Source of the DNA: Catajapyx aquilonaris
Lineage: Eukaryota
Assembly: GCA_000934665.2 (NCBI GenBank)
Contig: KZ538027.1
Coordinates: 1 to 64,000 of the forward strand
Direction: 5' to 3'
Length of the DNA: 64,000 nt
Position numbers and translations under genes: made by a program. Of the stretch, positions 5,945 to 29,400 are shown one piece after another (the first letter of the stretch is position 1; the number at the start of each line of letters is the position of its first letter). The notes under the pieces are model-generated. The model saw nothing but the letters and a program-made list of their open reading frames with translations. It ran no database searches and was not told the origin of the DNA.

Positions 5945-6184
5945 CCCTAGGACCTCTGCCCCTATTAATAATTGTTTTTACGTTCATTGCATGTCCTGTT
6001 GTAGCGACCTCACTATGGCAACTTAGGGTCGCTTGACCTGTAAAATTTAATTCAGAGAGATGTCATACGACTGACTCACGAATTAAGAGAGAAAGAGGTG
6101 TGCTGGTGGTACTTTTTTTATTTAATTGAACTTCAAATCATGCAAGGGATGATGACATTATATCCAAGCCGGATGGCCGATACA

Positions 6185-6580
6185 TCATTTATCATTGCGC
6201 ATGTGCTGCAAGAAATCCTTGATGAATTGCGTAAAGTTTGGGCATTCCTGAAAGCCAACAAATTGCAATTAGTGGCATCACAGCAGATGTAAATTTTACA
6301 TGAAGTAGTTTCCTCACCCTGCGAATGGTGCGATGCAGGCACAATGCAAATCTGGTAAATCCTGCACAATCAGGCTTGGTGATATCAACCGACTCGTCTG
6401 AAAGATGGTAAAACTATGTGAGACAAAGTACACGAATATTATTATGGTCCTTAGGACTTACACTTATCGAGGCAATCCTTCTTTAATGCAACAACTGCAT
6501 TCTTCAAATTACTTGGAGGTATTAAATTAACCACCTCATCATACATTGCTTTGTTTATAATCCCCTTCTCATCTATCTGC

Positions 6581-6652
<72 letters not shown>

Positions 6653-7008
6653 TGGTTCATACAAATCCGATTTTCTCTGTGAAGCACTGCATCAAGCACT
6701 GAAAAGATAATTATGAAGGTTATTCATAGTTTTTCGTAGTTGTTACTTAGATTTTATTGAAGTAATTATTGAGTTATTACCAGCATGCGATCAGGATGCG
6801 CGTTGAAGCAGACTGCAAAAGGGGCAGTGAAATGTACCAACTCAGGAGAGTTGAATTCGCAGTCAGCCTTCGCTTTCTCACCATATATTTCCTGAGAAGA
6901 AAAGGAGTGCATAAACTGCACACAACATTATTCCTAATGTCTCACCTGCGTATTCTGCAGCAACAATACGACCAAGATCAGCTGGAGACAATTAATGTTG
7001 CCCGTCAT
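6185..7008 (-). CDS. OBP-like secreted 8-Cys protein, copy C1 (155 aa, intact)
   Basis: Minus-strand exons 7008-6946, 6891-6781, 6698-6663, 6576-6462, 6397-6318, 6247-6185. Signal MTGNINCLQLILVVLLLQNTQEIYG. Motifs CEFNSPEL, CLMQCFTEKIG, DCLDK, PDCAGFTRFALC, ECPNF. Confidence 0.85.
6581..6650. repeat. (TAA)n microsatellite, about 23 units, in intron 3 of C1
   Basis: Directly visible. Confidence 0.98.
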
Positions 7009-7427
7009 TATATTGACTGCTCTGGGGGCACTATAAAGTCGAAAGCCACAACTTCTCTTTTTATGATAATTTTTTCTCTTATCCCTACATCCCTTTGACG
7101 AAATTCGTGCATCACAAAAATTGCGAAAAGGAAGTCACCTCAACAATGACCAAGGGATATGCAAATGAATTATTGCGAAAACCACGAGATGTCCTGGAGA
7201 TATGCAAATTTACCAATTATTTACATGATTGTGCAAGTGTTGGGTCAAAGACTGCGGAATATTTTGCGATTCTGGTGACATTGAAAATAATTCAGGTGGC
7301 ATTTATTCTATCAGTGTCTTAGTAAATAACATGAGAATGTTAAAGAGTATTCAATATATTGCAGGTTTTAATAAATTTTCAATTACGTGTAAGTTACATG
7401 AAGCAGCAGGAAATTAATTGTAGAAGA

Positions 7428-10797: not shown

Positions 10798-11227
10798 TCT
10801 TCAACAATTAATTTCCTCCTGCTTCATGTAACTTACACGCAATTGAAAATAAAAATATATCTGCAATTTATTGAATGCTCTTTAACATTCTCATGTTATT
10901 TACTAAGACCTTGACAGAATAAATGCAACGTGAATCATTTTCAATGTCACCAGAATCACAAAAGATTCCGCAGTCTTTGACCCAACACGTGCACAATCAT
11001 GTAAATAATAATTATTGGCCTGGTAAATTTGCATATCTCCAGGACATCTCGTGGTTTTCACAACAATTCATTTGCATATCCCTTGGTCATTGTTGAGGTG
11101 ACTTCCTTTTCGCAATTTTTGTGATGCACGAGTTTCGTCAAAGGGATGTAGGGATAAGAGAAAAAATTATCATAAAAAGAGAAGTTGTGGCGTTCGACTT
11201 TTTAGTGTCCCCAGAGCAGTCAATATA

Positions 11228-11570
11228 ATGATGGGCAACAATTGTCTCCAGCTGCTCTTGGTCGTATTGTTGCTGCAGAATCCGCAGGTGAGATATTAGG
11301 AATAATGTTGCGTGCAGTTTATGCACTCTTTTTCTTCTCAGGAAATATACGGTCAGGATGAGAAGATCTGCGAATTCGGCTCTCCTGAATTGATACATTT
11401 CTCTGCCCCTGTTGCATTCTGCTTCAACGAGCATCCTATAAACTTGCTGGTAATAACTCAATAGTTAGCCTACTTCAATCAACTCTAAGTAACAACTATG
11501 AATAACCTTCGTATCTTTTCAGTGCTGGCTGCGTTGCTTCACGGAGAAAATCGGAATAGTATATGAACCA

Positions 11571-11650
<80 letters not shown>

Positions 11651-12061
11651 TTCTTCTTCTTCTTATGCAGATAGATGAGAAGGGGACTGTGCACAAAGAC
11701 AAGGCGGATGATCTGATTAGTCAAGTACCTGCAGGTCATTTGCAGAATGCATTGGTTGCATTGAAGAAGGAGTGTCTCGATGAGCGTAAGTCCTGAGTAC
11801 CATACAGTATATTAGTGTACGTTGCTTGTCTCACACAGTTTTACCATCTTTCAGATGAGTCGATTGATGTATCCAAGCCTGATTGTTCAGGATTGACAAA
11901 ATTAGCATTGTGCATGAATCGCACCATGCGCACGGTGAGGAAACTACTTCATGTAATATTTTCATAAGCAGTTATGCCACTAATTACAATTTGCTTACTT
12001 TCAGGAATGTGCAAATTTTATTACATACATCAAGGATTTCATGGAGCACATGCGAAGCTAA
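11228..12061 (+). CDS. OBP-like secreted 8-Cys protein, copy C2 (151 aa, intact)
   Basis: Exons 11228-11287, 11342-11449, 11523-11558, 11671-11785, 11855-11934, 12005-12061. Sequence MMGNNCLQLLLVVLLLQNPQEIYG-QDEKICEFGSPEL...CWLRCFTEKIGIIDEKG...ECLDEHESIDVSKPDCSGLTKLALCMNRTMRTECANF. Confidence 0.85.
11572..11663. repeat. (ATT)n about 26 units plus short (TTC)n microsatellite in intron 3 of C2
   Basis: Directly visible; paralogous to 6581-6650. Confidence 0.98.
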
Positions 12062-12470
12062 ATGAAGTATCGCCCATCAGGCTTGGATATAATGTCATCA
12101 TCCCTGGCATGGCTTGAATAAGTTGAATTAAATAAAAAAAAGTACCACCAGCACACCTCTTTCTCTCTAAATTCGTGAGACAGTCGTATGACATCTCTCT
12201 CAATTGATTTTACAGGTCAAGTGACTCTAAGTTTCCATAGTGAGGTCGCTACAACAGGACATGCAATGAAAGTAATAACAATTAATTGGGGCAGAACACC
12301 TAGGGACAATACGTCTTGCCGATTGAGACATATTTGGAGTGACAGTAATCAATGTTGACAAAATTTCATATGTCGAAACTCCAAAGAGTAGGCCAATTAC
12401 ATCATTAAGACATGACCTTCATGATATAGAAGCCAATTTGATGCCTAATCCACATTAGACCATCAGCATC

Positions 12471-13565
12471 ATGTACACCTCCTGCCTTGTCATTTTTCTT
12501 GTAGGTAAGTACAGTACATATTCAGGAGAGTAAGCACCTGACGAAATACATATCACATCGGACATACTGCAGTACAACTATACAAGTGACTTGACAACAA
12601 CAACAACAACATCACGACATTTCCATATGAGGGGTAGTCAGCGATGAAGGGAGACGCAAGCCAACCCAACATATGAACTAATAAAACTCATGAGAATAAA
12701 CCTAAAAACAACCTGTCCCACCCCCTACCCCTGCCCACCCCAGACAAATTGAAGATATTGGTAAATGTTTAACTTTCCAGTAATTCCTGGTCATCCGAGT
12801 GTTCAAAGCGAATCCATCGTCCCAACACAAGAGAATCCATGCATTTGCAGCTTAGATGGCTGGCAGAGGCAGCTGGCCAAAGAGCTCTTGGACAAGGACC
12901 TCTCCCGCTTGTCTCCAGAGCAGAGAACAAAAGCCCAGCTCAAACTGGGTCAAAATGGAGTCATACTGGTTCCAGGTCACATTCCAGATGTTAGAGCATC
13001 CACACACTTTCCTGGTCTCATGCTGGGTGAGGCAGGACATCCTTTGTCCTGTATGTGCCAAGCTGGTAAGCAAATGGTAATTTCATAGAAAAATAAATGC
13101 ACACGACTTTATCAGACAGATTTCCTTATTTATGGTCAAGGTTCACGTGTGATCTATGAAGTGATAGTGACGGGTGCCAAGTGGCACAAGTCCCTTCAGG
13201 ATCCCGAATCATTACTCTTTGAGCAGCTGTCCATGTATGTGAGCCACCACCTGGACACCATCTTCTCCTTGTCCCCTGCTCCTCAAACGCCCCTCCAGCC
13301 ATCCGCCTATGTCCGATCAATTGTTCTCAGCTACTCACGCTACCGGCAATCAGAAGTGTCAGCTACCATCGAGACACAGCTCAGCATTCGCATGCTCAAA
13401 GCAGGCGATAAAGTCAGGTCTGCCTTCGTCAAGTCCATCTTCAAGGGGATCGAGCTGGAACCGGAGCCCAAGAAGGACGATCAACCCCTGCCCTTTCTTC
13501 CTCTTACGCTGATCCTGGAGAAACCTTTCCGTGATATCACTGGCAGCTGCAATCGGTGCCATTGA
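12471..13565 (+). CDS. Secreted SEA-like domain protein, paralog 1 (247 aa as written; possibly frameshifted near the 3' end)
   Basis: Exons 12471-12504 (MYTSCLVIFLV), 12781-13065 and 13141-13565 joined by phase-1 introns. Segment KWHKSLQDPESLLFEQLSMYVSHHLDTIF resembles the first helix region of SEA domains. Strongly similar to the 14278 paralog. Confidence 0.7.
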
Positions 13566-14277
13566 GATCTGCATCAAAGCATCCAACGGCTAAGAACAAC
13601 TCTGCTACTACAACAGTACTCGGGAGGTCAATCGGACGTAAGGGCAAGACATTCAGAAGAAACTGCTGAAGCGATGCATGGTCATTGTCCCTCCACATGT
13701 GACATACCTTCTATTATTACCAGTATCACGCAACAATATTATTGTTGATGTCATTTCTACTACTACTACTGCTTCAATAAAAAGTTCAATTTCTGCAACA
13801 TGTAATGTAAACTCATTGCTTTTGCCATTCATGTCCAAGTCCAGCAGGACCTGTTTGACGTCATACACGACACCTTAGGAGTGACGTCTTAAGAAATCTA
13901 GGAGCAAATCTGCCATTGATTTACTCCAAGTCATGCAATGCTAAGGAGTTTCCATAGTGAGAATAACATAGGGGGTTGCTACAACAGGTGGCTGCCTTGG
14001 ACATGCAAAAAGAAAGGAAGGTAACGTAACGACGGAAAGGAAAATAAGTACACAAGAGGACCAGTTAAGGTGAATTATGACTTGACAGTTCTGATTAATG
14101 GGATGGGAGTATCCAGCACTGACGAAAGAACTTGTATCCAAAAAGTTGGCCATTTCTGTCACTTGTACATGGCCAACATGTGAGTATGCACATTTTGCAT
14201 TCAATGCACCTTCATAATACATTCTCAGGAGGAGCAAAATTTTCAGTGCCTACTATCCGACCACCAGTGCTTGCATC

Positions 14278-15577
14278 ATGTACACCTTCTGCCTCATCGT
14301 ATTTCTGATCATAGGTAAGTAATTACTGCAATCTTATGTAACTAGTAGTCATTTTCACGCTGGCTCCCCACAACCAGTAATACCTGGCCATCCGAGGGTA
14401 CAAGGCGAATCCATCCCGGCGCAAGAGAACCCATGCATGTGCACCTTAGATGGCCGACAGAGACAGCTTGCCCTCAAGCTTTTGGACAAAGAACTATTCC
14501 GCCTGACTCGCGAGCAGAGGACTAAGGCCAAGCTCAAACTGGGACAAAACGGAGCCATCCTGATTCCGGGTGACGTTCCGGCAGTTAAAGCAGCCACGTA
14601 CTTTCCTGGGCTCATGCACAGTGATGCCGGAAAACTGCTGCTGTGCACATGCCAAGCTGGTAAGCAACGTCAGGAAAAATTGTGGTACGGACTTATTTTT
14701 CTTTTTGTTAGGTTCCCGTGTGATCTACGAAGTAACAGTGACGGGTGCCAAGTGGCACGAGTCGCTCCTGGATCCCGAGTCATTATTCTTCGAGCAGCTG
14801 TCCACGTACGTGAGCCACCACCTGGACAGCATCTTCTCCCTGTCCCCTGCACCGCAAACACCGCTCCAGCCATCCGCCTATGTCCGATCCATCGTCCTCA
14901 GCTATTCACCCTACCCTCCGAAAGGAGTGTCGGCTACCATCGAGACACAGCTCAGCATTCACATGCCCGATGCAGTCCTCAAAGTCAGGTCGGCCTTCAT
15001 TAAGTCCATCTTCAAGGGGATCAACCTAAAACCAGCGACTAACAATGACAACATGAAGCATCGTAAACCCCTACGCTTTCTTCCGCTTATACTGGTCCTG
15101 GAGAAGCCTTTCCGCGATGTGTCTGAAAGAAGGGTAAAAAGGGCCGCCACGAAGAAGGACAACACCGAAGAGGTTCTGGAGCAGGTTGGAGGAGCATGGA
15201 GAGGTACGTAGCCAAACACGTCGTGAACCCAGTAAATAATTACACAATTTGAGGTTCCGCAACAGTGCCACATTTTTCTAACACAAATTTCTCCCCCATC
15301 TGGACCAATTCCAGACACATCTTACAAAGGTGTAAGGTTTGGAGAAACGCCAGACAATCTCTATTACGTTACCATACCCGCATTTGTAGGTAGGCACAAT
15401 CCTAGTCATGCACGTCCGCACCAACAGCACTACAATAACATGCCAGATACTAACCCGCTAAATTTTTCAGGGCTGATGATACTGACGTGCCTCATTTTCT
15501 TCATGACAAAAATCAGAAGCCGGTTTTGCAACTGTTGCGGGGGACAAAAAATCATTGAAGGGAAAGAACAGCTGTGA
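14278..15577 (+). CDS. Type-I membrane SEA-like domain protein, paralog 2, isoform a (330 aa)
   Basis: Exons 14278-14314, 14378-14659, 14712-15203, 15315-15389, 15471-15577, all phase 1. Signal peptide, CMC...CTC domain, SEA-like domain, RRVKR, TM LYYVTIPAFVGLMILTCLIFFM and tail TKIRSRFCNCCGGQKIIEGKEQL*. AATAAA at about 15718. Confidence 0.8.
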
Positions 15578-15795
15578 AAATTGTCATGGTGCACGATTTG
15601 TCAACTGTCTTTAAGTTGTAAAATGACCGTTAATTTTGTTACGGCAGCAGGAGATTGTCTGTGTATTTTTAATGTTCAGCACATAACGTTTCCTGTTTCA
15701 TGCACGCGTAACATTACGAATAAAGTTAGCCTTTCCCCCGACTCATGATGTTCCCGGAAATCAATCCCGCCTCTCTTGTTTCTGCTCCCAATAAG

Positions 15796-16326
15796 AGGAT
15801 CCCGAAGTGTCCCCCAACAAGAGGAGACGTCCATGGAAGAGGCCGTGGAAGAGGCCTGGGACGCAGCCTTGGCGACCTGAGGCGGACGAACCCTCGCCCA
15901 CACCCGGGCCCCAAGAAAACAAATATTACTTCTTAACCGTCACAATTCCAACGGCCCTAGGTAAAAGCGAGTCATCATTTTCAATTGGACAGATTAGCCA
16001 CTAATTATTACAGAAAAGCTCATTATGGTCGCAACACTTATTCCATTCTTATTACAAAAGCTGCTCACTAAATTTTGTGCAGTATTTGCCCCTCTTCTCA
16101 GCACCCCATATTTATCAACTATTTATAATTAGAATTAATACATTAAATATTTAAACATTAAAAAAAAAATGGAATAATAACTCCCCCAAGTCTGCTACTC
16201 CCAGGCCTTTGCGGGACGATCTGCCTCTGCATATGCGGCACCAGGGTCCACGGGTGCCTCTGCAACTGCTGCGGCGGAGGAGAGGTCGATCGTGATCAGG
16301 AAGATGAAGAGGACGATGTGACCTGA
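15796..16326 (+). CDS. Alternative terminal exon pair (isoform b, 365 aa) of paralog 2: second stalk, TM and Cys-rich tail
   Basis: Exons 15796-15960 and 16205-16326, both phase 1 and compatible with the donor at 15203/15204. Encodes ...ENKYYFLTVTIPTALG|LCGTICLCICGTRVHGCLCNCCGGGEVDRDQEDEEDDVT*, colinear with the isoform-a tail. Confidence 0.7.
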
Positions 16327-16412: not shown

Positions 16413-16424
16413 CAAAGATGGCGG
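16413..16424 (+). promoter_or_regulatory. YY1/Pho-type motif (AAGATGGCGG) in the likely CHMP2B promoter or 5' UTR
   Basis: Consensus AANATGGCG, typical just downstream of housekeeping transcription starts. The CHMP2B ATG exon has a splice acceptor at 16650, implying an upstream non-coding exon. Confidence 0.5.
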
Positions 16425-16652
16425 ACGGAAATGAACTTTGCTTTTTAAATGAATTTATTTTAATGGGTCGATTTTAACAGAAGTGTGTACATTTTTTTTA
16501 AATTGTTTTTATGAGCATTAAATGTGGGTTTTTTTTAAATGGAGAGTTTTTTTGGGGGATTGTGATGTAATTTTTTTGGTGATTCATTTTCAACGTGACT
16601 TTTTTTTCGAGGCGAAACGCGAAAGTTCGTTCGAATTTTTCTGTTTGCAGAG

Positions 16653-17561
16653 ATGAATTTCTTTGGGAGCAAACCGACTGCAAAAGGTGAATATATTTGG
16701 CGTAAAATCTCTCATAGAACGTGGTGGAATCAGACTGTCTAAATAATAAACCGCACTAGTGACTAGTGCACCGACAAGTATTACTGCACGGTTTAATTGT
16801 ATGTGAAATTGTGAATAATTGCAGAGCAAATGAGAGAGAACGACCGGATGCTGCGGAAGGCAGGACGGGACATTGAGAGGGATCGGAGGCAACTGGAGAT
16901 GGAGGAGAAGAAGCTGGTAAGCGCAATTGTCGGTAAAAAAAAGGGTACGTAACGATATGACAAGTTACATTTCATTGATAGGAATTGGAGATAAAGCAGA
17001 TGGCAAAAGCGGGGAACAAGGCTGCGTGCGGGGTACTTGCGAAACAGCTGGTGCAGCTTCGTAAGCAGAAGTCTCGCACGCATACGGCAACCGGTAAGGT
17101 TAAGTCGGTGGGTTTCCAGGCGAAGTCGATGCAGGCTAATGTGAAGTTGGCCGATGCTATGAAGACGACCTCAAAGACTATGGGAGATATGAACAAGATG
17201 ATGAAGCCGCAGGACATTGCGAATACCATGAAGGAGTTCCAGGCTGCTTCCGCTAAGATGGAAATGAGTGATGAGATGATGAACGATGCGCTGGAGGATA
17301 TACTGGACGAGTCGGGAGATGAGGAGGAGTCTGATTTCCTGGTGCAGAAGGTGCTGGATGAGATTGGCATCGAGATGTCCGGAAAGGTGATCTTAATCAC
17401 TGCGAAAATTTTGTTTGGACAGAAACTTAACAATGTACTGCTTACAGGTTCGTGGTGCTCCGATGGCTCAAGGAGAAATCGGCGAGTCGTCCGCATCCAA
17501 GCAAAGGACGGACGAGATCGAGGCACAGTTGGCCCGACTTCGCAATCTCGACGCACAATAA
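16653..17561 (+). CDS. CHMP2B: Charged multivesicular body protein 2B (ESCRT-III, Snf7 family), 214 aa
   Basis: Exons 16653-16686, 16825-16916, 16982-17386, 17448-17561. Sequence MNFFGSKPTAKEQMREND...LELEIKQMAKAGNKAACGVLAKQLVQLRKQKSR...DEEESDFLVQKVLDEIGIEMSGK, with a C-terminal MIM1-like DEIEAQLARLR. Confidence 0.95.
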
Positions 17562-21190: not shown

Positions 21191-24100
21191 TTAGGTCATG
21201 TATCGCATTATGGCACGTAATGCGTACAAAAGTTCGGCTTGCATCCGAGCTTCAAGCACCATTAGGTTGACGTGAACCTGGAAATAAGATATCAGAATTA
21301 TTTGCCTGTCTCAAAACGGTGAGTGGAGTAACGGTCGATAGGCCATACCTTTTCCGAGTGTCGGAACTCCCTCATAACACAATCGTAATCAGCCTTTCCA
21401 AGCCTCTCTGGGAAGCAGCAAACAGTCTTGATAAACGCCTTCAGAGACCTCTCCAACAGTTGATTCACCTCCCCGTAATCGTAGTCGTCATGCCTGCAAC
21501 ATACGAACGGCGGTAATTTGCTTGCCTATCAACAGCCACCAAATGAACCGTACCTGATTCCATACATGCACTGGATGTAATTCCAGATGGCCCTCCTGAA
21601 TCTAGAGGTGTCGACATCTTTCCAGGTGCCCATGGTATAGTATGTAAGATTATAGGCCACCTTGAACTTCTCATCAAGGAGGTTCCCCACATCGTTGTAC
21701 AGCCGGTTGACCAGAGAGTATCCGTGGTCGTCCCAGCTGTAGTCTTGCACCCTGAAGGTGGGGATCTCCGACACCTCGCCGCGCTTGGCAAAGTCCTGGT
21801 AGGAGAAGGACGGATCTTCAATGAACTGGCTGATGTCCGCGCTCAGTCCCAGGAGGACACGCTGGTTGCTCAGGAGCTCCATGCTTTGGCTTTCGACATG
21901 CTGGAACCTAGACAAAGAGGGGAATACATGGCGTGATTAGCTAGGGCAAACCATTAAACTAGCTGCTGAATGGGAACAGTGACTCATTGCTTTTGTTATT
22001 TTAGCTTGTTTGATAACATTGATTTGAATGTACAATGTGCTGAAACTGTTTAGCACACAATATGAATGTGTAAATGGGCTCTGACTCATGCTCGTAACAG
22101 TTGCATGCGGACAGATTCACTGCCAACGATGCATCGCTGTATTACAATGTCCAAGCGCGGTATAAACTTGTTCACGCAAACAGCCACGGTTTATCTCACT
22201 TGAGTGCTGCAATCCAGAAATATAGCATTTTTTTTTCTCTCAGATCTAATGGTTATACGCAAGGGGCAAAGGTTACAAACCACATGTGGCAGACCCCCCC
22301 CTGCTTGACCTATATGCTGTTCCTTTGTAAACTCCAATTTTGGTCAACAACACTGTCGGAGAATTTCAATGTTAAACAAAGCAAAAAATAATAATCTAAC
22401 CTCTTGTTCCTCTCTTCCATGGTGAACTCCTCTTGCTTCTCCGAGAGAGTCTTCATCCGCTTCATCAGTGTGTCTACTCCGACCTCCTGATCCCGCACAG
22501 GTTGTCCGTCCAGGCGAGCTGGAGAGAGGTTCCTGGAGTCTGAAAAACACACAAGTCGCACTTAAAGCAAATCCGCATAATTGCAACAATTCTGCGACAA
22601 CTGTGCTCTAGCCATTGTTGTGCTAACTATGATACATCATGAGAAATATGCCTTTCGATGCATACCTCACAATTCAAGTACGAAGAAAACATGTGGTTAT
22701 GCCCTATGCGGATATGGCATGCCAGACACAAATGATGAAAAACAGCCAACGACTTGCAGCCTTAGCACCATAAATCCGCATAATTTTAAACTGGCATGTT
22801 GTAACCCCTATGCTTGAATTATCTAACTCTACTTGAACCTTGGGTCAAATGGCTATTGCATAAGCGACGGACATAACAAGTAATCAAATGAGACTCGGGC
22901 AACAATGTTCCATTTAAAGCCAACTCACTCGGGTCCGGTTGTTGCTGCGGTGGAGATCCGTTGGTCCCCTCTTTGGCATTATTGTCGTAGGTGTGGTTGC
23001 TCTCCTGGTCCAGCTCGTCATTGATGCCACAGCCAAACACAAAGCTAGACAAAGCGTGGAACTGGGTCATGATCACAATTGCCTGCACCAACTCCCCAAG
23101 CGTCCAGCTGTCTTTACTCTTTGTCAGTTTCTGGAAGGGAAAAGAAAAATGTCACATTACACGTTAAGGACAACACTAGGCAAGCCCCGGTTATTTTGTA
23201 ACAAAAGCAAACTTACTGCATTTACATGAAAAAAGGCAGCATACAAGGAAAAATCTCAAGCATTTTCAACACATTTTATGCCGGCACGATCGTAATAAAA
23301 CTTGCTGGCCTAGGTTGAACGAGACCCACCTCTATGTGCGCCTTGGTGAGTAGCCATGGCCTGTGACACAGGATCTTGTTGATTTCGTAGAGGTCCCTCA
23401 GCTTCTTCGGGATCTGCGGAAGCCCACTTTCCAACCACCGCTTGTCGCCTCCTTGACTCTCGAACTCCTGGCCATGCAAGTTGATGAGGTAGCTGCACTG
23501 ATGCCTTCCAGCAGCCTGATAGGTAATCAGAAAGGAAAATTAAGTCCCCCATTACAATCAACTAATGGCACAATGTGGGCAGTGCAACTACCCTTTGTTC
23601 ATGCAACCATTAGCCACCGTGACTCACACATGTTTGCAACACATTTTATATGGACGAATAGCAATAAATTTATTGGTCGGCATAATACGTGACAGACTCT
23701 CCCATTTCCTGAAACAAGGGGGCATCCGTAATGACCATCTTTGTTCATTTGCGACCCTTTACCTGGAGAGAGAAAGGAGCTCCCTAGGGAAAAAATTGAG
23801 GCCTTGGTGCAACTTGATGCAAGGTAGGTGTGGTGTTAAAAGACCACTTTGAAAGAAGAAAAAAAAAAACAGGGTGGCCACAAAAACCACCAAGATTTTA
23901 ATCATGTGAGGAGTATATCAGCTTTCTCAATGGCGAGATGTCACATGCTCAATGCAAGGTGAGCAGGTTATTGTACCGAGTAGTTTATAAGCTGGCCTGT
24001 CACGCTCCATGGCTTTTTTTGGTGGCCGATTGTTCGGGAAGCAGTGGACAGTGGCAGTCGTAAAAATTGAGTTGAAAGAGTGTCAACAGGACGTCGGCCA

Positions 24101-26426
24101 ATTTCTAATGCGGTTCTCGTGTGGGGGTCAGATCGGCAAACAGATCAAGACGCTCCAATTGACTTTCACTTTGGGGATTTAGCACCTGAACCTCTCCGCA
24201 CATCTTGACAAACGCTCCTTGTTTGAACGTGCACGGCACTAATCCTTAGTTCACGGTAAGATGTAACGGATTACGTTATAAGCAAGTTGCTGGGCTATAC
24301 ACAACTGAACTTTTTCAGACAATGCACTAACCTGCGACATAACCAGGGAGCATATACTACATACATGTAGTATACATGCTCCCTGACATAACACTGAAAG
24401 TAACAAGAGTAAATATTAACCTTTACAAATATGGCACTGAGAAAAATGCATAATTCATGTGATTGTTCTTGCAACAAGCAGTGCTCTTCAATGATTATAA
24501 TATTCAGTAACTAGAGCCCCGGAAAGTCAATTAGCATGAACCCAAGGCTGTACAGTACCGAGCACACATTGCAGGTGCAAAAAAAAAGGGTTTCCCTCAT
24601 AAATTTCTATGCGAACCTGACAAGCATGATTACATGCAGCAATTTGGAGCACCTAAATCAATTTGGCCGATGCCCAACAGGTTATATCCAATAAGTTATT
24701 TTGACTCTAATGCACTTGTAAATCTGGCCGCTCCCCCCCCCCCAAAAAAAACTTGTGCAGTTAAAAAATCCATGTCACGTGCCATTAGCAGGTCACAATC
24801 CTGAAAACTTCCAACATAAAGCCAGAGGGGTGAAAGGTGGTGAAAAGACAAAATAAAACAACCTGGCCATGCGAGAAAGTGAACGTATGAGCCGGGACAT
24901 CCTCATGGTTGAGCTTTGTCCTCTTTCAATGATATGCGCTCCACAGCCCGGTGTTTTGCCCCCATCCAAAACAGGATTTTGAGAGAGAAAAAAAAATTAT
25001 ATATGGCAGGAGCAAGGAGGGGGAAACATATGAGGTGCCACTTATGACCACAATTTTCATGTGTTTATGTGGTATTTCATGTTGTGACCTTTTTTCCAGG
25101 AAATTATGACCATCTGATTCATGTCTAGGTCAATTCTAGAAATTAATTTATTGGGACATGTTGCAACGCAAGAACGCCAAGTTGGTCATAAGTTACGCAC
25201 CGGTCCTGTTGTGTATGAAAGCAAACTGAAAGTTACCGCATTTGCACTCAAGTAAATTTTAAATGAGCACAAGACTGTAAATATGAGGATGTGACACACT
25301 CTCCAGGTAAAGTTACTGTTGAATACATAAACATTAGAAAATTGCAGGACTGCATTTAAAATGTAGGACGTCAAGCGGAGCAAATATTGCACACACATTC
25401 ATATAGAATTGCAGCTTGTCAGCGTTACTTTCTGAAACATTGCATGTCATTCGGTAACTTTAAAAACCAGTAATTTTCCACAAGTTTCCATCCGAATCGT
25501 ATATGACAGAAAGACACGCCCACACATTAAAGGACATATTTTTTTTGTCAACAATTTTTGACATCATTAATATGAATGGGCTTTGTTTCTCGATGCAGCT
25601 GAGTTATTACAGTGTTTTTCTCTTACCAGGAAAAGCAGCTGAGAATATTAAATTGGCTTCCATGCAGCCAACTTGCATTGCAAGTTGCAACTGTGAGTAC
25701 ACGATTGCATAAAGGGCTGTGTATTTACAGATGCAAGAGGACTGCGAATTAATCAGTACAGCAAGTAAGAAGACGTAAGAGATAGCATTGCAGTATTCAT
25801 TATTATTCTTTAATCATCTGTTTTTATTCCAACTCTTTGGACTGACATACTCTGTGTAACAAGTAAACAAAAAAATTATTACCAATTAAATTACAACTGC
25901 CTTCCAATGCTATAGTAACACACCTCACACAGTACTCAGCCACAATTTATGTCAACTCTGCCCAGGAAATGCATAATTGAATGTGTGCAGCGCAAACGTA
26001 ACTTTTGAATGACTCTTTAACCGAGCTGTAAATAGTTGAAATTGCTCTGTTAATACCGCTTGCAGTGATAATGCAGGTCATTTGCTAACCTAGCTTCAGC
26101 ACAAAAAAATTGCGGAAACAATAGTTGCTCCGTTGACATATTTGCATTGTAGTCAATGCTAAGCAATTTGCATTGGAGCCCCACTGGCCTGCACTGGAAT
26201 TCTACCGGGGCAACCTGAAAAAAAAAAAAAGAGGAGACATGTGAATGCGACTGACCATGATGGCGATGTAGTGCCTGTAGTGGAAAGGCAATGGGCCGTC
26301 ACCCCGTAGGAGGAACTGCTGGGTCCGCATGAAACACTCCAAGTACTGCGGGTGAAAGCCCATCACCTGGGTCAGGTGATCCAAGCGATTGTTCTGTAGA
26401 AATGCGTCGATGAACAGGACGTGAGT
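21191..26426 (-). CDS. SESN: Sestrin common core (7 exons)
   Basis: PA26/sestrin domain exons as listed in the long isoform. Confidence 0.97.
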
Positions 26427-29400
26427 CTGCGAAAGAGAAGAAGAAGAAACTGTCAGTGTTACGTACAATGCAAAATATCTGGTTGCAACGTTCAGTACAT
26501 TCATAACAATTTTAATTTTCCAGTTCATGACCCTGGCTTTGGCAACTTGAAAGCCATTCACTGCAACAATAGTTGTCAACATATGATCAGTATCGAAACC
26601 AGGACCAGTCCAAACGATCCAGCTGTGGAAGTGTCCCCCCTTCCAACCATAAGCAGCTGATACTTTTTAATTCAGGACCACCTTTTGGCTCTCCCAGCTG
26701 ACCTTCCCTCTTTGTCCCAATTTACTAAGACCCCCCCCCCCCCTCACAGGGAAGGGTTTGCTTCTTTTTTTTTATTTGCGCTTCCGGATGTACCTTCAAG
26801 GTCTTATTCAAATTTTTATTATCGCTACTGCACCCAACCCCTCCTGGCAAAACCATTCCTTTATGGTAGAGTGAATATCTTTGTTGACTCTCAACCAAAC
26901 CGTGGATTACCAGATTTACCTTCTGTTTTTCAACGAGCAAAACATCTTACATAATGATTATGCAACGGTGAGAAGAAGAAGAGAGAGAAAAAAAGTTTCA
27001 AAAGCGGGAGCATAATTATCATGTCACCTTGACATTCCCATATGTGCAGCATGGCGATAAATTCGAGACACACCGGTATTTATTATTTTCCTCTCGCAAT
27101 ATCCCCCCTTTTAAAAATGTCCCAACCGAACTTGCATGCGTACGGATGCACCGACCAGAAATAGAAACTTCAAGGTAAGGCTGTGGGGCCGATGGTCTTT
27201 ATTCGCGAATATTCATTTTTTTCGCAACATCCCGTCGCGTATTCGTATATTATCTTCATACGCGCGTAACATCATTATCAATATCGCGTGATTCATTAGC
27301 GACGAAAAGTATTCTCGGAAAAGGATACAAGAACAATGCCTGTTTAATGCTGCAAATGCCTCTGAATCACATGCATACTTAATCTGCTAAGGAAAAAAAA
27401 AATCTGCGGTATTATCGGAATTGAATACAAAAAAAATATACCCGGTGGTTTACCCTGCTAATGAAACCGCAACGGAAAAATGTATGGCTGTGCACATTAC
27501 ACAGAAAATTAAACAGAATGTTTTCCAACCTTTATCATTTTTTACAAGCTCACTTTCAGTATGCCAATTTTCATCACAGTACCGTAGTCTATAAAAGCGG
27601 GTTAGGTAGCCTGCATATGTAGACATACTTTATGCTTCATTATGTAAGATACACCCTGGACCATACGGGCCACCGGACCAAAAATCATCAGGAGATGGCA
27701 GACTATGTCATAATACAATTTTTACATCATCGCTGGCCATCCCTTTGGCTGTGCAAGGACAAATGACTTCATCCTGAAGGACCCACAGGGAGAATCCATC
27801 CATCCAAATCCCTGCACTCAACCAAATCCAGTTACGAAACGACCCAACACATGCAGTCATGTACTATTTTTTTTACATTGGACTCTATAGCAACTTTAAA
27901 AAAAAAAATCGAGAGAGAGAGAGAGAGACCTTCTACCCTTCCGTCATGGGGTGGTATAGAGGCAGCCCCCTAATTGCCCTCCCCTTAACTCGTCCCGAAG
28001 ACTATAAATCTTGTCCCCCTCAACGTGACCATGGGTGCTGTCAGAGGGTGTGCCACTTCAAAAACCCTCCTCATCCCAAATGGCCCAGGGGCAGTCCAAC
28101 CATCAAGGAAGAAGGGGAGGGCCTCTTTTAATTACCACCCGGCACGTTCGCATTGCCTTTTAAAACCAATCCCCCTGCTGAGACTTGACTCAACTTGTCT
28201 TCTCTTTTCCCAAGAAAACAAAAAAAAACGCCGGACTCCAAAAGCTCTAATGTCACGCACAAAGTGTAACAAAAATTCTCACCAAATAATTCAGTGATCA
28301 ATTTGCGACAAATTAACCGGCTTTCAAGTGGGCAGTTCCCGGCAACAAAGAGGATTTAGCAATCTTCCGAAGAAGAGCGCAGGTGTACAGAAATAAGGGC
28401 AGAAAAATTCCAAAAATCTGAACAAGCTCGAACTTGACTTTGCCTCAAACTAAAAATGTTGGAAAAATTCCAGACAAAGGCATTCGTATGGGATTCTTTG
28501 ACAATTGAATTAAAAACGGAGAACCTTTTATTACAAAATTTGACGAATGAATAACCAGCGTGTGTTTAAGTTAAATAAGCACATTTTAGGCACCAACCGA
28601 ACAAACTTTGATCATATATGCCACAACAGCCAAAAATCCGGACAAAGGCATTGGATGGACTTCCTTTGACAATCGAATACATAAAAAAAATTGGCACAAC
28701 ATTTTGATTTCAACAATCCGATGAATGTTTCCATCCAGTGTGTATTTAAGCATATAAGCACACTAACTTTAAAATTTGATCCTATGCCAGACATCCCCCT
28801 CAGCCGTCTTTAAAAAAACTGGAGGCCACATCACAAAGGGAAAAAAACCTGCCGGAGTTCTTTGTCCGATACTTAGTCACCAAGTTAATTTCATATCACT
28901 TTACACCTCGATCTCACAAAAAATAAAACCCCGTGCTTTCCCTCGACTTATTAATTGGCCGGTTACAGGTCAATCAACCCCAGCAACAATGCAAAAACTT
29001 ACGTCGTGTCCGACCTGCCCCATGGTCTCAATGTCTTGGGCTGTGATGGCCTCACAGCCGTCTGCTTCTCTAGCGACAGGAATCTTGAACACACTCACAC
29101 CCAGCCTCCCCCACTTAACAACAATGCCCAACAATCACATGTACTGTGTGCCACACCACGAGCGAACCGACTCGTTGTACGTCCCGGCACCGACTGACAA
29201 AACGGATGGTGGTAAACCCGGTTGGGGTGGTGGGGGAACTAGGGGAGAGGGTAGGAGAAGAGTGCAGTCAGCTGTGCAGCCCCGATCTCTCATTGGATCC
29301 GTGAGCAACCATTGAGGAGGTTGCATCAGCCTGTTGCCCCTGAGGACTATAGCACGACACACGGCTTAGCAACCCCAAGACCATTGTTGCCACGCGAAAG

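Follow-up and report, generated by a model that had tools for sequence, protein, structure and literature searches.

Swapping of membrane anchors by means of old tandem exon duplicates is already established in arthropods. In Dscam1, exons 17.1 and 17.2 are described as old tandem duplicates that encode alternative transmembrane segments, with one copy used per mRNA (PMC3364881). Exons 18a and 18b of arthropod N-cadherin are likewise tandem-duplicated alternative anchor exons, and the anchor variants of Dscam are targeted to distinct neuronal compartments (PMC2655722). Here we describe a gene, called gene B below, in a stretch of 64,000 nucleotides (nt) of intron-bearing animal DNA from Catajapyx aquilonaris (contig KZ538027.1, positions 1 to 64,000; the window). 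In this gene, stalk, membrane anchor and cytoplasmic tail are encoded by two duplicated exon pairs, 4a-5a and 4b-5b, which lie next to each other behind a set of ectodomain exons. The two pairs are homologues, and the second looks maintained as a coding cassette. Of the ways in which it could be used, the best reading is that pair b is joined to exon 3 as an alternative terminal cassette; we infer its transcription and joining from the sequence, and give this reading a probability of about one in two.

Gene B would encode a small type I surface protein, with its parts in the order signal peptide, N-terminal domain, weakly SEA-like domain, linker with a furin-like site, stalk, one membrane helix, juxtamembrane cysteine cluster and short tail (Table 1). 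All introns are GT-AG and all exon boundaries are in phase 1, so exon 3 can be joined in frame to either 4a or 4b, giving predicted products of 330 amino acids (aa) for the a form (3-4a-5a) and 365 aa for the b form (3-4b-5b). The exon borders, the phases, the position of the AATAAA between the pairs and both tail endings were all found where an earlier sequence-only reading of this DNA had placed them. Membrane and signal-peptide calls were made with 19-residue Kyte-Doolittle windows only. By this measure both forms have an N-terminal hydrophobic leader, with a peak of 1.74 at residue 2 in exon 1, and a single C-terminal hydrophobic peak, which reaches 2.44 in anchor a and 1.95 in anchor b; basic residues follow anchor b. 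Tail a ends in KEQL; the b cassette ends in acidic residues and has eight cysteines in its anchor and juxtamembrane region. The furin-like R-V-K-R lies at residues 247-250, in the linker after the SEA-like domain, and there are no N-x-S/T sequons in either isoform. Two smaller features of these exons were also seen. Intron 4a (15390-15470, plus strand) has 81 nt, a number divisible by three, and contains no in-frame stop (the stop-to-stop frame is 15236-15577); its retention would add 27 residues between stalk and anchor and preserve the frame. Inside exon 4b, a 12-nt direct repeat (15836-15857, plus strand) gives rise to a twice-repeated short basic Pro-Trp-Lys-Arg-Pro unit.

The two stalk-anchor-tail pairs are true homologues and old duplicates. 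They share a 32-residue core that runs across the splice junction and in which 15 residues are identical, and in both pairs the intron splits the same glycine codon in the same phase. This bears out the gapless alignment across the junction that the sequence-only reading had reported. When the whole window was searched with tblastn, exon 5a found 5b at an expectation value (E) of 7.4e-5 and exon 5b found 5a at 9.6e-5. The Smith-Waterman score of the two spliced tails is 92, and none of 5000 composition-preserving shuffles reached it (mean 22.6, standard deviation 3.9, maximum 46). Both tails are short and rich in cysteine, and elsewhere in the window gapless matches by chance have up to nine identities in 32 residues, as might be expected if the likeness were an effect of chance or of composition in cysteine-rich hydrophobic peptides. 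Such an origin is hardly credible when the shuffle maximum is half the observed score, when the intron position and phase are common to both pairs, and when an 18-nt stretch with 16 matches spans the common cysteine motif. We rejected it on the strength of the tblastn matches, the 32-residue core and the shuffle test.

Having established that pair b is a copy, our next question is whether it looks like a living one. Pair b looks maintained as a coding cassette, and a pairwise test over 32 codons gives moderate evidence both for this and for purifying selection on the two alternatives. Nine of the 15 conserved core residues use different codons in a and b, and the differences between the cores number 14, 10 and 22 at codon positions 1, 2 and 3. 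The proportion of synonymous differences in the core (pS) is 0.763, which is close to random, against 0.389 for replacement differences (pN; Fisher p 0.004). Since the synonymous sites are saturated and yet the residues are kept, pair b would have been maintained as a coding stretch during the greater part of its history. Neutral drift over the same time would also have randomised the replacement sites, which argues that pair b has not been drifting neutrally throughout. The base composition is that of exons: the G+C content (GC) is 0.588 in exon 4b and 0.607 in 5b, compared with 0.32 in the intron between them and 0.33 in the DNA behind, and at third codon positions (GC3) it is 0.63 in 4b and 0.72 in 5b, comparable to exon 3 (0.67) and to the neighbouring CHMP2B gene (0.69). 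The splice sites of pair b are intact, with a 4b donor of TAG/GTAAAA and pyrimidine tracts before both acceptors. The pairs are thus homologous, adjacent, in the same phase and furnished with intact splice sites, as tandem-duplicated alternative exons are.

Several observations weigh against the use of pair b as a terminal cassette. The core test covers only 32 codons, or ~23 synonymous sites, and a pairwise pN below pS is compatible with a recent death of the pair. The interval 15730-15960 is open in five of six frames, so the intact frame of exon 4b is weak evidence alone, and the first ~40 residues of 4b are low-complexity, basic and proline-rich, with no counterpart in 4a. The acceptor of 4b is AAG, and a canonical AATAAA only 72 nt ahead of it may forestall its use. 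Behind exon 5b there is little room for a 3' untranslated region (UTR), as the start of CHMP2B follows after 327 nt and the ATTAAA at 16517 is the sole AATAAA or ATTAAA from the 5b stop to the CHMP2B start codon at 16654. A codon-usage likelihood computed per frame from a small training set gave no separation of frames. No conserved docking/selector intron pairing was seen around the cassettes, where the only inverted pairs are short ones of 10-22 nt, which we judged unconvincing.

Part of this list would suit a different explanation, by which pair b would be the relic of a duplicate that was once in use but has dropped out of splicing, either recently dead or never usefully expressed, so that only the a form is made. 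The early canonical AATAAA ahead of a weaker AAG acceptor, the uninformative open frame of 4b and the crowding toward the CHMP2B start all fit a relic, and a pairwise pN/pS could not date a recent loss of constraint. A relic is harder to reconcile with 15 of 32 core residues kept despite synonymous saturation, or with the b intron having both of its splice sites intact at the homologous position. The sharp step in GC between the b exons and their AT-rich surroundings also speaks against it, as long neutral drift should have erased that step. We regard a relic as unlikely, but likely enough to be reckoned with.

If pair b is in use, the ways of reaching it are few. Exons 4b and 5b contain no methionine in the homologous frame and an in-frame TAA stands directly upstream of 4b, so this frame could be entered only through a splice from a phase-1 donor farther upstream. 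Two donors that fit are those of exon 3 (GAG/GTACGT) and exon 4a (TAG/GTAGGC), both in phase 1, which match the donor consensus at seven and six of nine positions, respectively. With a stop at its end and no plausible donor inside it, exon 5a would serve as a terminal exon only. Because the AATAAA of the a form precedes the 4b acceptor so closely, use of pair b would need splicing to beat cleavage. A choice of splicing over cleavage is the mode of the classical alternative terminal-exon genes. In gene B, the first route would be splicing of 3-4a-5a and cleavage at the AATAAA at 15719-15724, yielding a protein whose anchor is strongly hydrophobic and whose tail is short and neutral. On the second route, the donor of exon 3 (or of 4a) would be joined to 4b before cleavage could occur, and the 3-4b-5b product would have a longer basic, proline-rich stalk, a cysteine-rich anchor and an acidic tail. 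Both of these anciently duplicated pairs have apparently been kept by selection. Judging from the cysteine clusters alone, both anchors may be palmitoylated; furin may shed the ectodomain; and the cysteine clusters together with the acidic tail suggest that the two forms could be sorted differently.

The exon 4a donor allows a variant of the second route, in which pair b would be used but joined behind 4a (15389^15796). This would leave exon 5a as the only alternative terminal exon and give the b form both stalk segments. The phase-1 donor of 4a, an open 4a-4b-5b reading that gives 390 aa and a stop, and the want of a usable internal donor in 5a, which would make it terminal only, are all in keeping with this arrangement. 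The resulting product would, however, have the hydrophobic first part of anchor a within its ectodomain, and the 4a donor is no better than that of exon 3. Duplicated exon pairs are moreover normally used singly, as is established for mutually exclusive exons (e.g., PMC3364881, PMC2655722). We consider joining behind 4a improbable.

Joining of pair b to exon 3 is close to what the sequence-only reading had proposed, namely that alternative last exons swap the anchor on one ectodomain. Much of that proposal stands: the pairs are real old duplicates, pair b bears the marks of a maintained cassette, and an AATAAA lies between them. The single ectodomain does not, as the layout of the locus is ectodomain, ectodomain, tail, tail. 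It had also been stated that no signal-peptide exon was found for pair b. There is none in 15577-15796, but a second ectodomain unit with its own signal peptide lies upstream at 12471-13565 and had been missed. Tblastn and blastn detected no further copies of cassette or ectodomain in the window, and none of the ectodomain between or behind pairs a and b.

The upstream unit, copy A, is a truncated paralogue of gene B with an intact spliced frame of 247 aa. In a DNA alignment, homology between the two extends from ~70 nt before the ATG to about codon 137 within exon 3. Copy A then continues with seven unrelated codons to a stop, behind which an AATAAA stands at 13776. Over 226 codons the synonymous divergence (dS) is 0.54 and the replacement divergence (dN) 0.145, a ratio (omega) of 0.27, while the introns differ in length between copy A and gene B (276 vs. 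63 nt and 75 vs. 52 nt). An omega of 0.27 beside diverged introns points to purifying selection, and copy A is probably a functional gene encoding a secreted protein, not a pseudogene. No anchor or tail exons for it were found in 13566-14277 or elsewhere in the window by open reading frame scan, tblastn or blastn. Copy A ends at about the point where gene B has its furin-like R-V-K-R, so it would resemble the ectodomain that furin would shed from B. Since the synonymous sites of the tail duplication are saturated, that duplication is older than the ectodomain duplication.

With two ectodomains followed by two tails, all exons of both copies in phase 1, and copy A itself under apparent purifying selection, one could imagine a combinatorial locus. 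Transcripts from the copy A promoter would read through to pair a or b or to the exons of gene B, so that two ectodomains could be combined with two anchors. The end of copy A is poorly suited to this. Exon 3' reaches its own stop at 13563-13565, homology to gene B ends inside exon 3, and copy A has its own AATAAA. Near the end of exon 3' there is no phase-1 GT matching the donor consensus at six or more of nine positions, the sole one being at 13147, at the start of the exon. A combinatorial locus is therefore very improbable in our view, and we continue with pair b joined to exon 3 of gene B.

What kind of ectodomain would these anchors carry? The evidence suggests, weakly, that exon 3 encodes a SEA-like domain. 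The Pfam SEA profile (PF01390) matched gene B with 14.9 bits (E 0.03) and copy A with 14.7 bits (E 0.034), not reaching the gathering cut-off of 26.4, and the match covers only profile positions 7-60 of 106. A phmmer search with exon 3 in a space of 1.84 billion representative proteins found a protein with seven SEA domains, P0002, at E 1.8e-5 in five stretches, the best of which comprises query residues 7-44. P0002 itself scores 413.9 bits against the Pfam SEA profile in seven stretches, so that exon 3 has significant similarity to a bona fide SEA protein. In an Atlas feature search, 16 of the 30 matches to exon 3 were SEA clusters, with a top score of 0.93 and a recognition of 2027, below the mark of 2300. 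The SEA fold is an alpha/beta sandwich with the order beta-alpha-beta-beta-alpha-beta, and its self-cleaving subtype has a G-S-V-V-V motif between strands 2 and 3. As modelled by AlphaFold2, exon 3 shows secondary-structure elements in an order compatible with this fold, but with a mean predicted local distance difference test (pLDDT) score of 37.8 and a predicted template modelling (pTM) score of 0.25 the model is too poor for a fold comparison. No self-cleavage motif of the G/SVVV type was found in the loop between the predicted strands (exon 3 residues 65-72), and a sequence search of the PDB with a profile of copy A and gene B returned no matches at E up to 10.

Beyond this domain, no relatives of gene B were detected. 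The exhaustive phmmer search with exon 3 returned only two matches, P0002 and P0001. We rejected P0001 as a relative, since its 34 matches to the linker mark it as a repeat artefact. None of the 659 candidates in a homologue search with exon 3 scored, and exon 2 had no Pfam match, no named Atlas cluster and no scoring homologue among 96 candidates; exon 2' of copy A likewise belongs to no Pfam family. Scans of metagenomes with the single protein and with the alignment of copy A and gene B gave 111 and 213 pattern matches, of which none was confirmed. As far as these searches reach, gene B appears to be lineage-restricted, with no orthologue in the collections searched.

If pair b is used, a single orphan surface protein would have at its disposal two membrane anchors, two patterns of cysteines, and hence of possible acylation, and two tails. 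One could go further and see in the locus a lineage-restricted, self-contained signalling or decoy module that arose by two separate partial duplications. A SEA-like receptor would have two interchangeable anchors, one hydrophobic with a neutral tail and the other cysteine-rich and multiply acylated with an acidic sorting tail, which would take it to different membrane domains, and the secreted copy A would constitutively mimic the shed ectodomain. This larger scheme is speculative and improbable. As gene B has no detectable relatives, the biological weight of the locus would be modest until expression is shown. The case also bears on annotation. Standard gene callers will stop at the first stop codon and miss pair b, and will probably label copy A a pseudogene, although an omega of 0.27 points to a functional gene.

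The neighbourhood of the two copies is summarised with their exons in Table 1. The gene that follows pair b encodes CHMP2B, an ESCRT-III protein of the Snf7 family. Its best matches are tick and insect proteins with 62-66% identity, 607 of 615 candidates matching at E of 0.001 or less and none being near-identical. A AAGATGGCGG-like motif at ~16417-16427 may mark the CHMP2B promoter or a 5' non-coding exon, and falls within the would-be 3' UTR of the b form. Immediately upstream of copy A lies one arm (11021-12305) of a 1.3-kb inverted repeat whose other arm is at 5945-7215. The arms are 84.6% identical over 1311 nt and are probably a mobile element in two copies; the 11021-12305 arm contains a microsatellite of the (ATT)n type at ~11560-11650. 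Farther downstream, exons of a Sestrin gene (Pfam PA26) lie on the minus strand at 21529-26666, with two exon-sized frames matching at E 2.9e-51 and 8.1e-24.

Table 1. Features of the gene B locus and its immediate surroundings, in window coordinates.
Feature	Positions	Strand	Description and basis
Copy A exon 1'	12471-12504	+	ATG, signal-peptide-like stretch, phase-1 donor TAG/GTAAGT; tblastn match to exon 1, 7/11 identical (64%), E 0.003
Copy A exon 2'	12781-13065	+	N-terminal cysteine-bearing domain; 69% identity to exon 2 over 94 aa, E 2.4e-40
Copy A exon 3'	13141-13565	+	SEA-like; 75% identity to exon 3 over 137 aa, E 1.1e-60
AATAAA	13776-13781	+	Downstream of the copy A stop; motif scan
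Gene B exon 1	14278-14314	+	ATG, signal-peptide-like hydrophobic stretch, phase-1 donor; sequence reading
Gene B exon 2	14378-14659	+	N-terminal domain, no known family
Gene B exon 3	14712-15203	+	SEA-like domain, linker with furin-like site, phase-1 donor GAG/GTACGT
Exon 4a	15315-15389	+	Stalk, first part of anchor a; both ends in phase 1
Exon 5a, coding part	15471-15577	+	Anchor a, cysteine cluster, short tail, stop
AATAAA	15719-15724	+	Probable poly(A) signal for the a form, at 72 nt before the acceptor of 4b; motif scan
Exon 4b	15796-15960	+	Basic proline-rich stalk, first part of anchor b; both ends in phase 1
Exon 5b, coding part	16205-16326	+	Cysteine-rich anchor b, cysteine cluster, acidic tail, stop
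ATTAAA	16517-16522	+	Candidate poly(A) signal of the b form; motif scan
CHMP2B	16654-17400	+	ESCRT-III, Snf7 family

Among better-known SEA proteins, gene B is most readily set beside MUC1, with which it shares a SEA-type domain next to a single helix and then a short cysteine motif; MUC1 is the subject of a study, cited in PMC2688377, that bears the title 'Recycling of MUC1 is dependent on its palmitoylation'. The likeness has clear limits. The SEA match of gene B is below the Pfam cut-off, and there is a furin-like site after the domain instead of a self-cleavage motif. Unlike the transmembrane mucins, neither isoform has a Ser/Thr/Pro-rich repeat region, only exon 4b being proline-rich and basic, and phmmer and the homologue search detected no orthology of gene B to any mucin. 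For MUC1-type SEA membrane proteins, secreted forms are known as well as membrane-tethered ones (PMC2688377). In this comparison copy A would take the part of the secreted form.

In the layout of its 3' end, gene B resembles a different set of genes. Alternative terminal exons are common, and in calcitonin/CGRP, in immunoglobulin mu (secreted vs. membrane) and in the exon 9 variants of tropomyosin the 3'-terminal exon is chosen by competition between splicing and polyadenylation. As in genes of the calcitonin/CGRP type, the upstream terminal exon of gene B has its own poly(A) signal, the downstream exons would be reached only if an upstream donor is spliced past it, and the C-terminus would be swapped. 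Unlike the mu gene, in which a secreted end alternates with an anchored one, both ends of gene B are anchors, and they are related by duplication. A literature search on tandem-duplicated alternative last exons of transmembrane proteins found no related case.

The comparison with Dscam1 and N-cadherin is the closest for the anchors themselves. As in those genes, old tandem duplicates in gene B encode putative alternative anchors of an arthropod-type surface protein. The duplicates of Dscam1 and N-cadherin are single internal exons, mutually exclusive, with common downstream exons and one 3' end, whereas each alternative of gene B, read here from the DNA alone, is an exon pair that includes its own stop, with a poly(A) signal between the pairs. 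Given that poly(A) signal, the choice in gene B would be one of cleavage versus splicing. If the reading is true, gene B would have a compartment switch like that of Dscam1, reached by the choice of a terminal exon and not by mutually exclusive internal exons.

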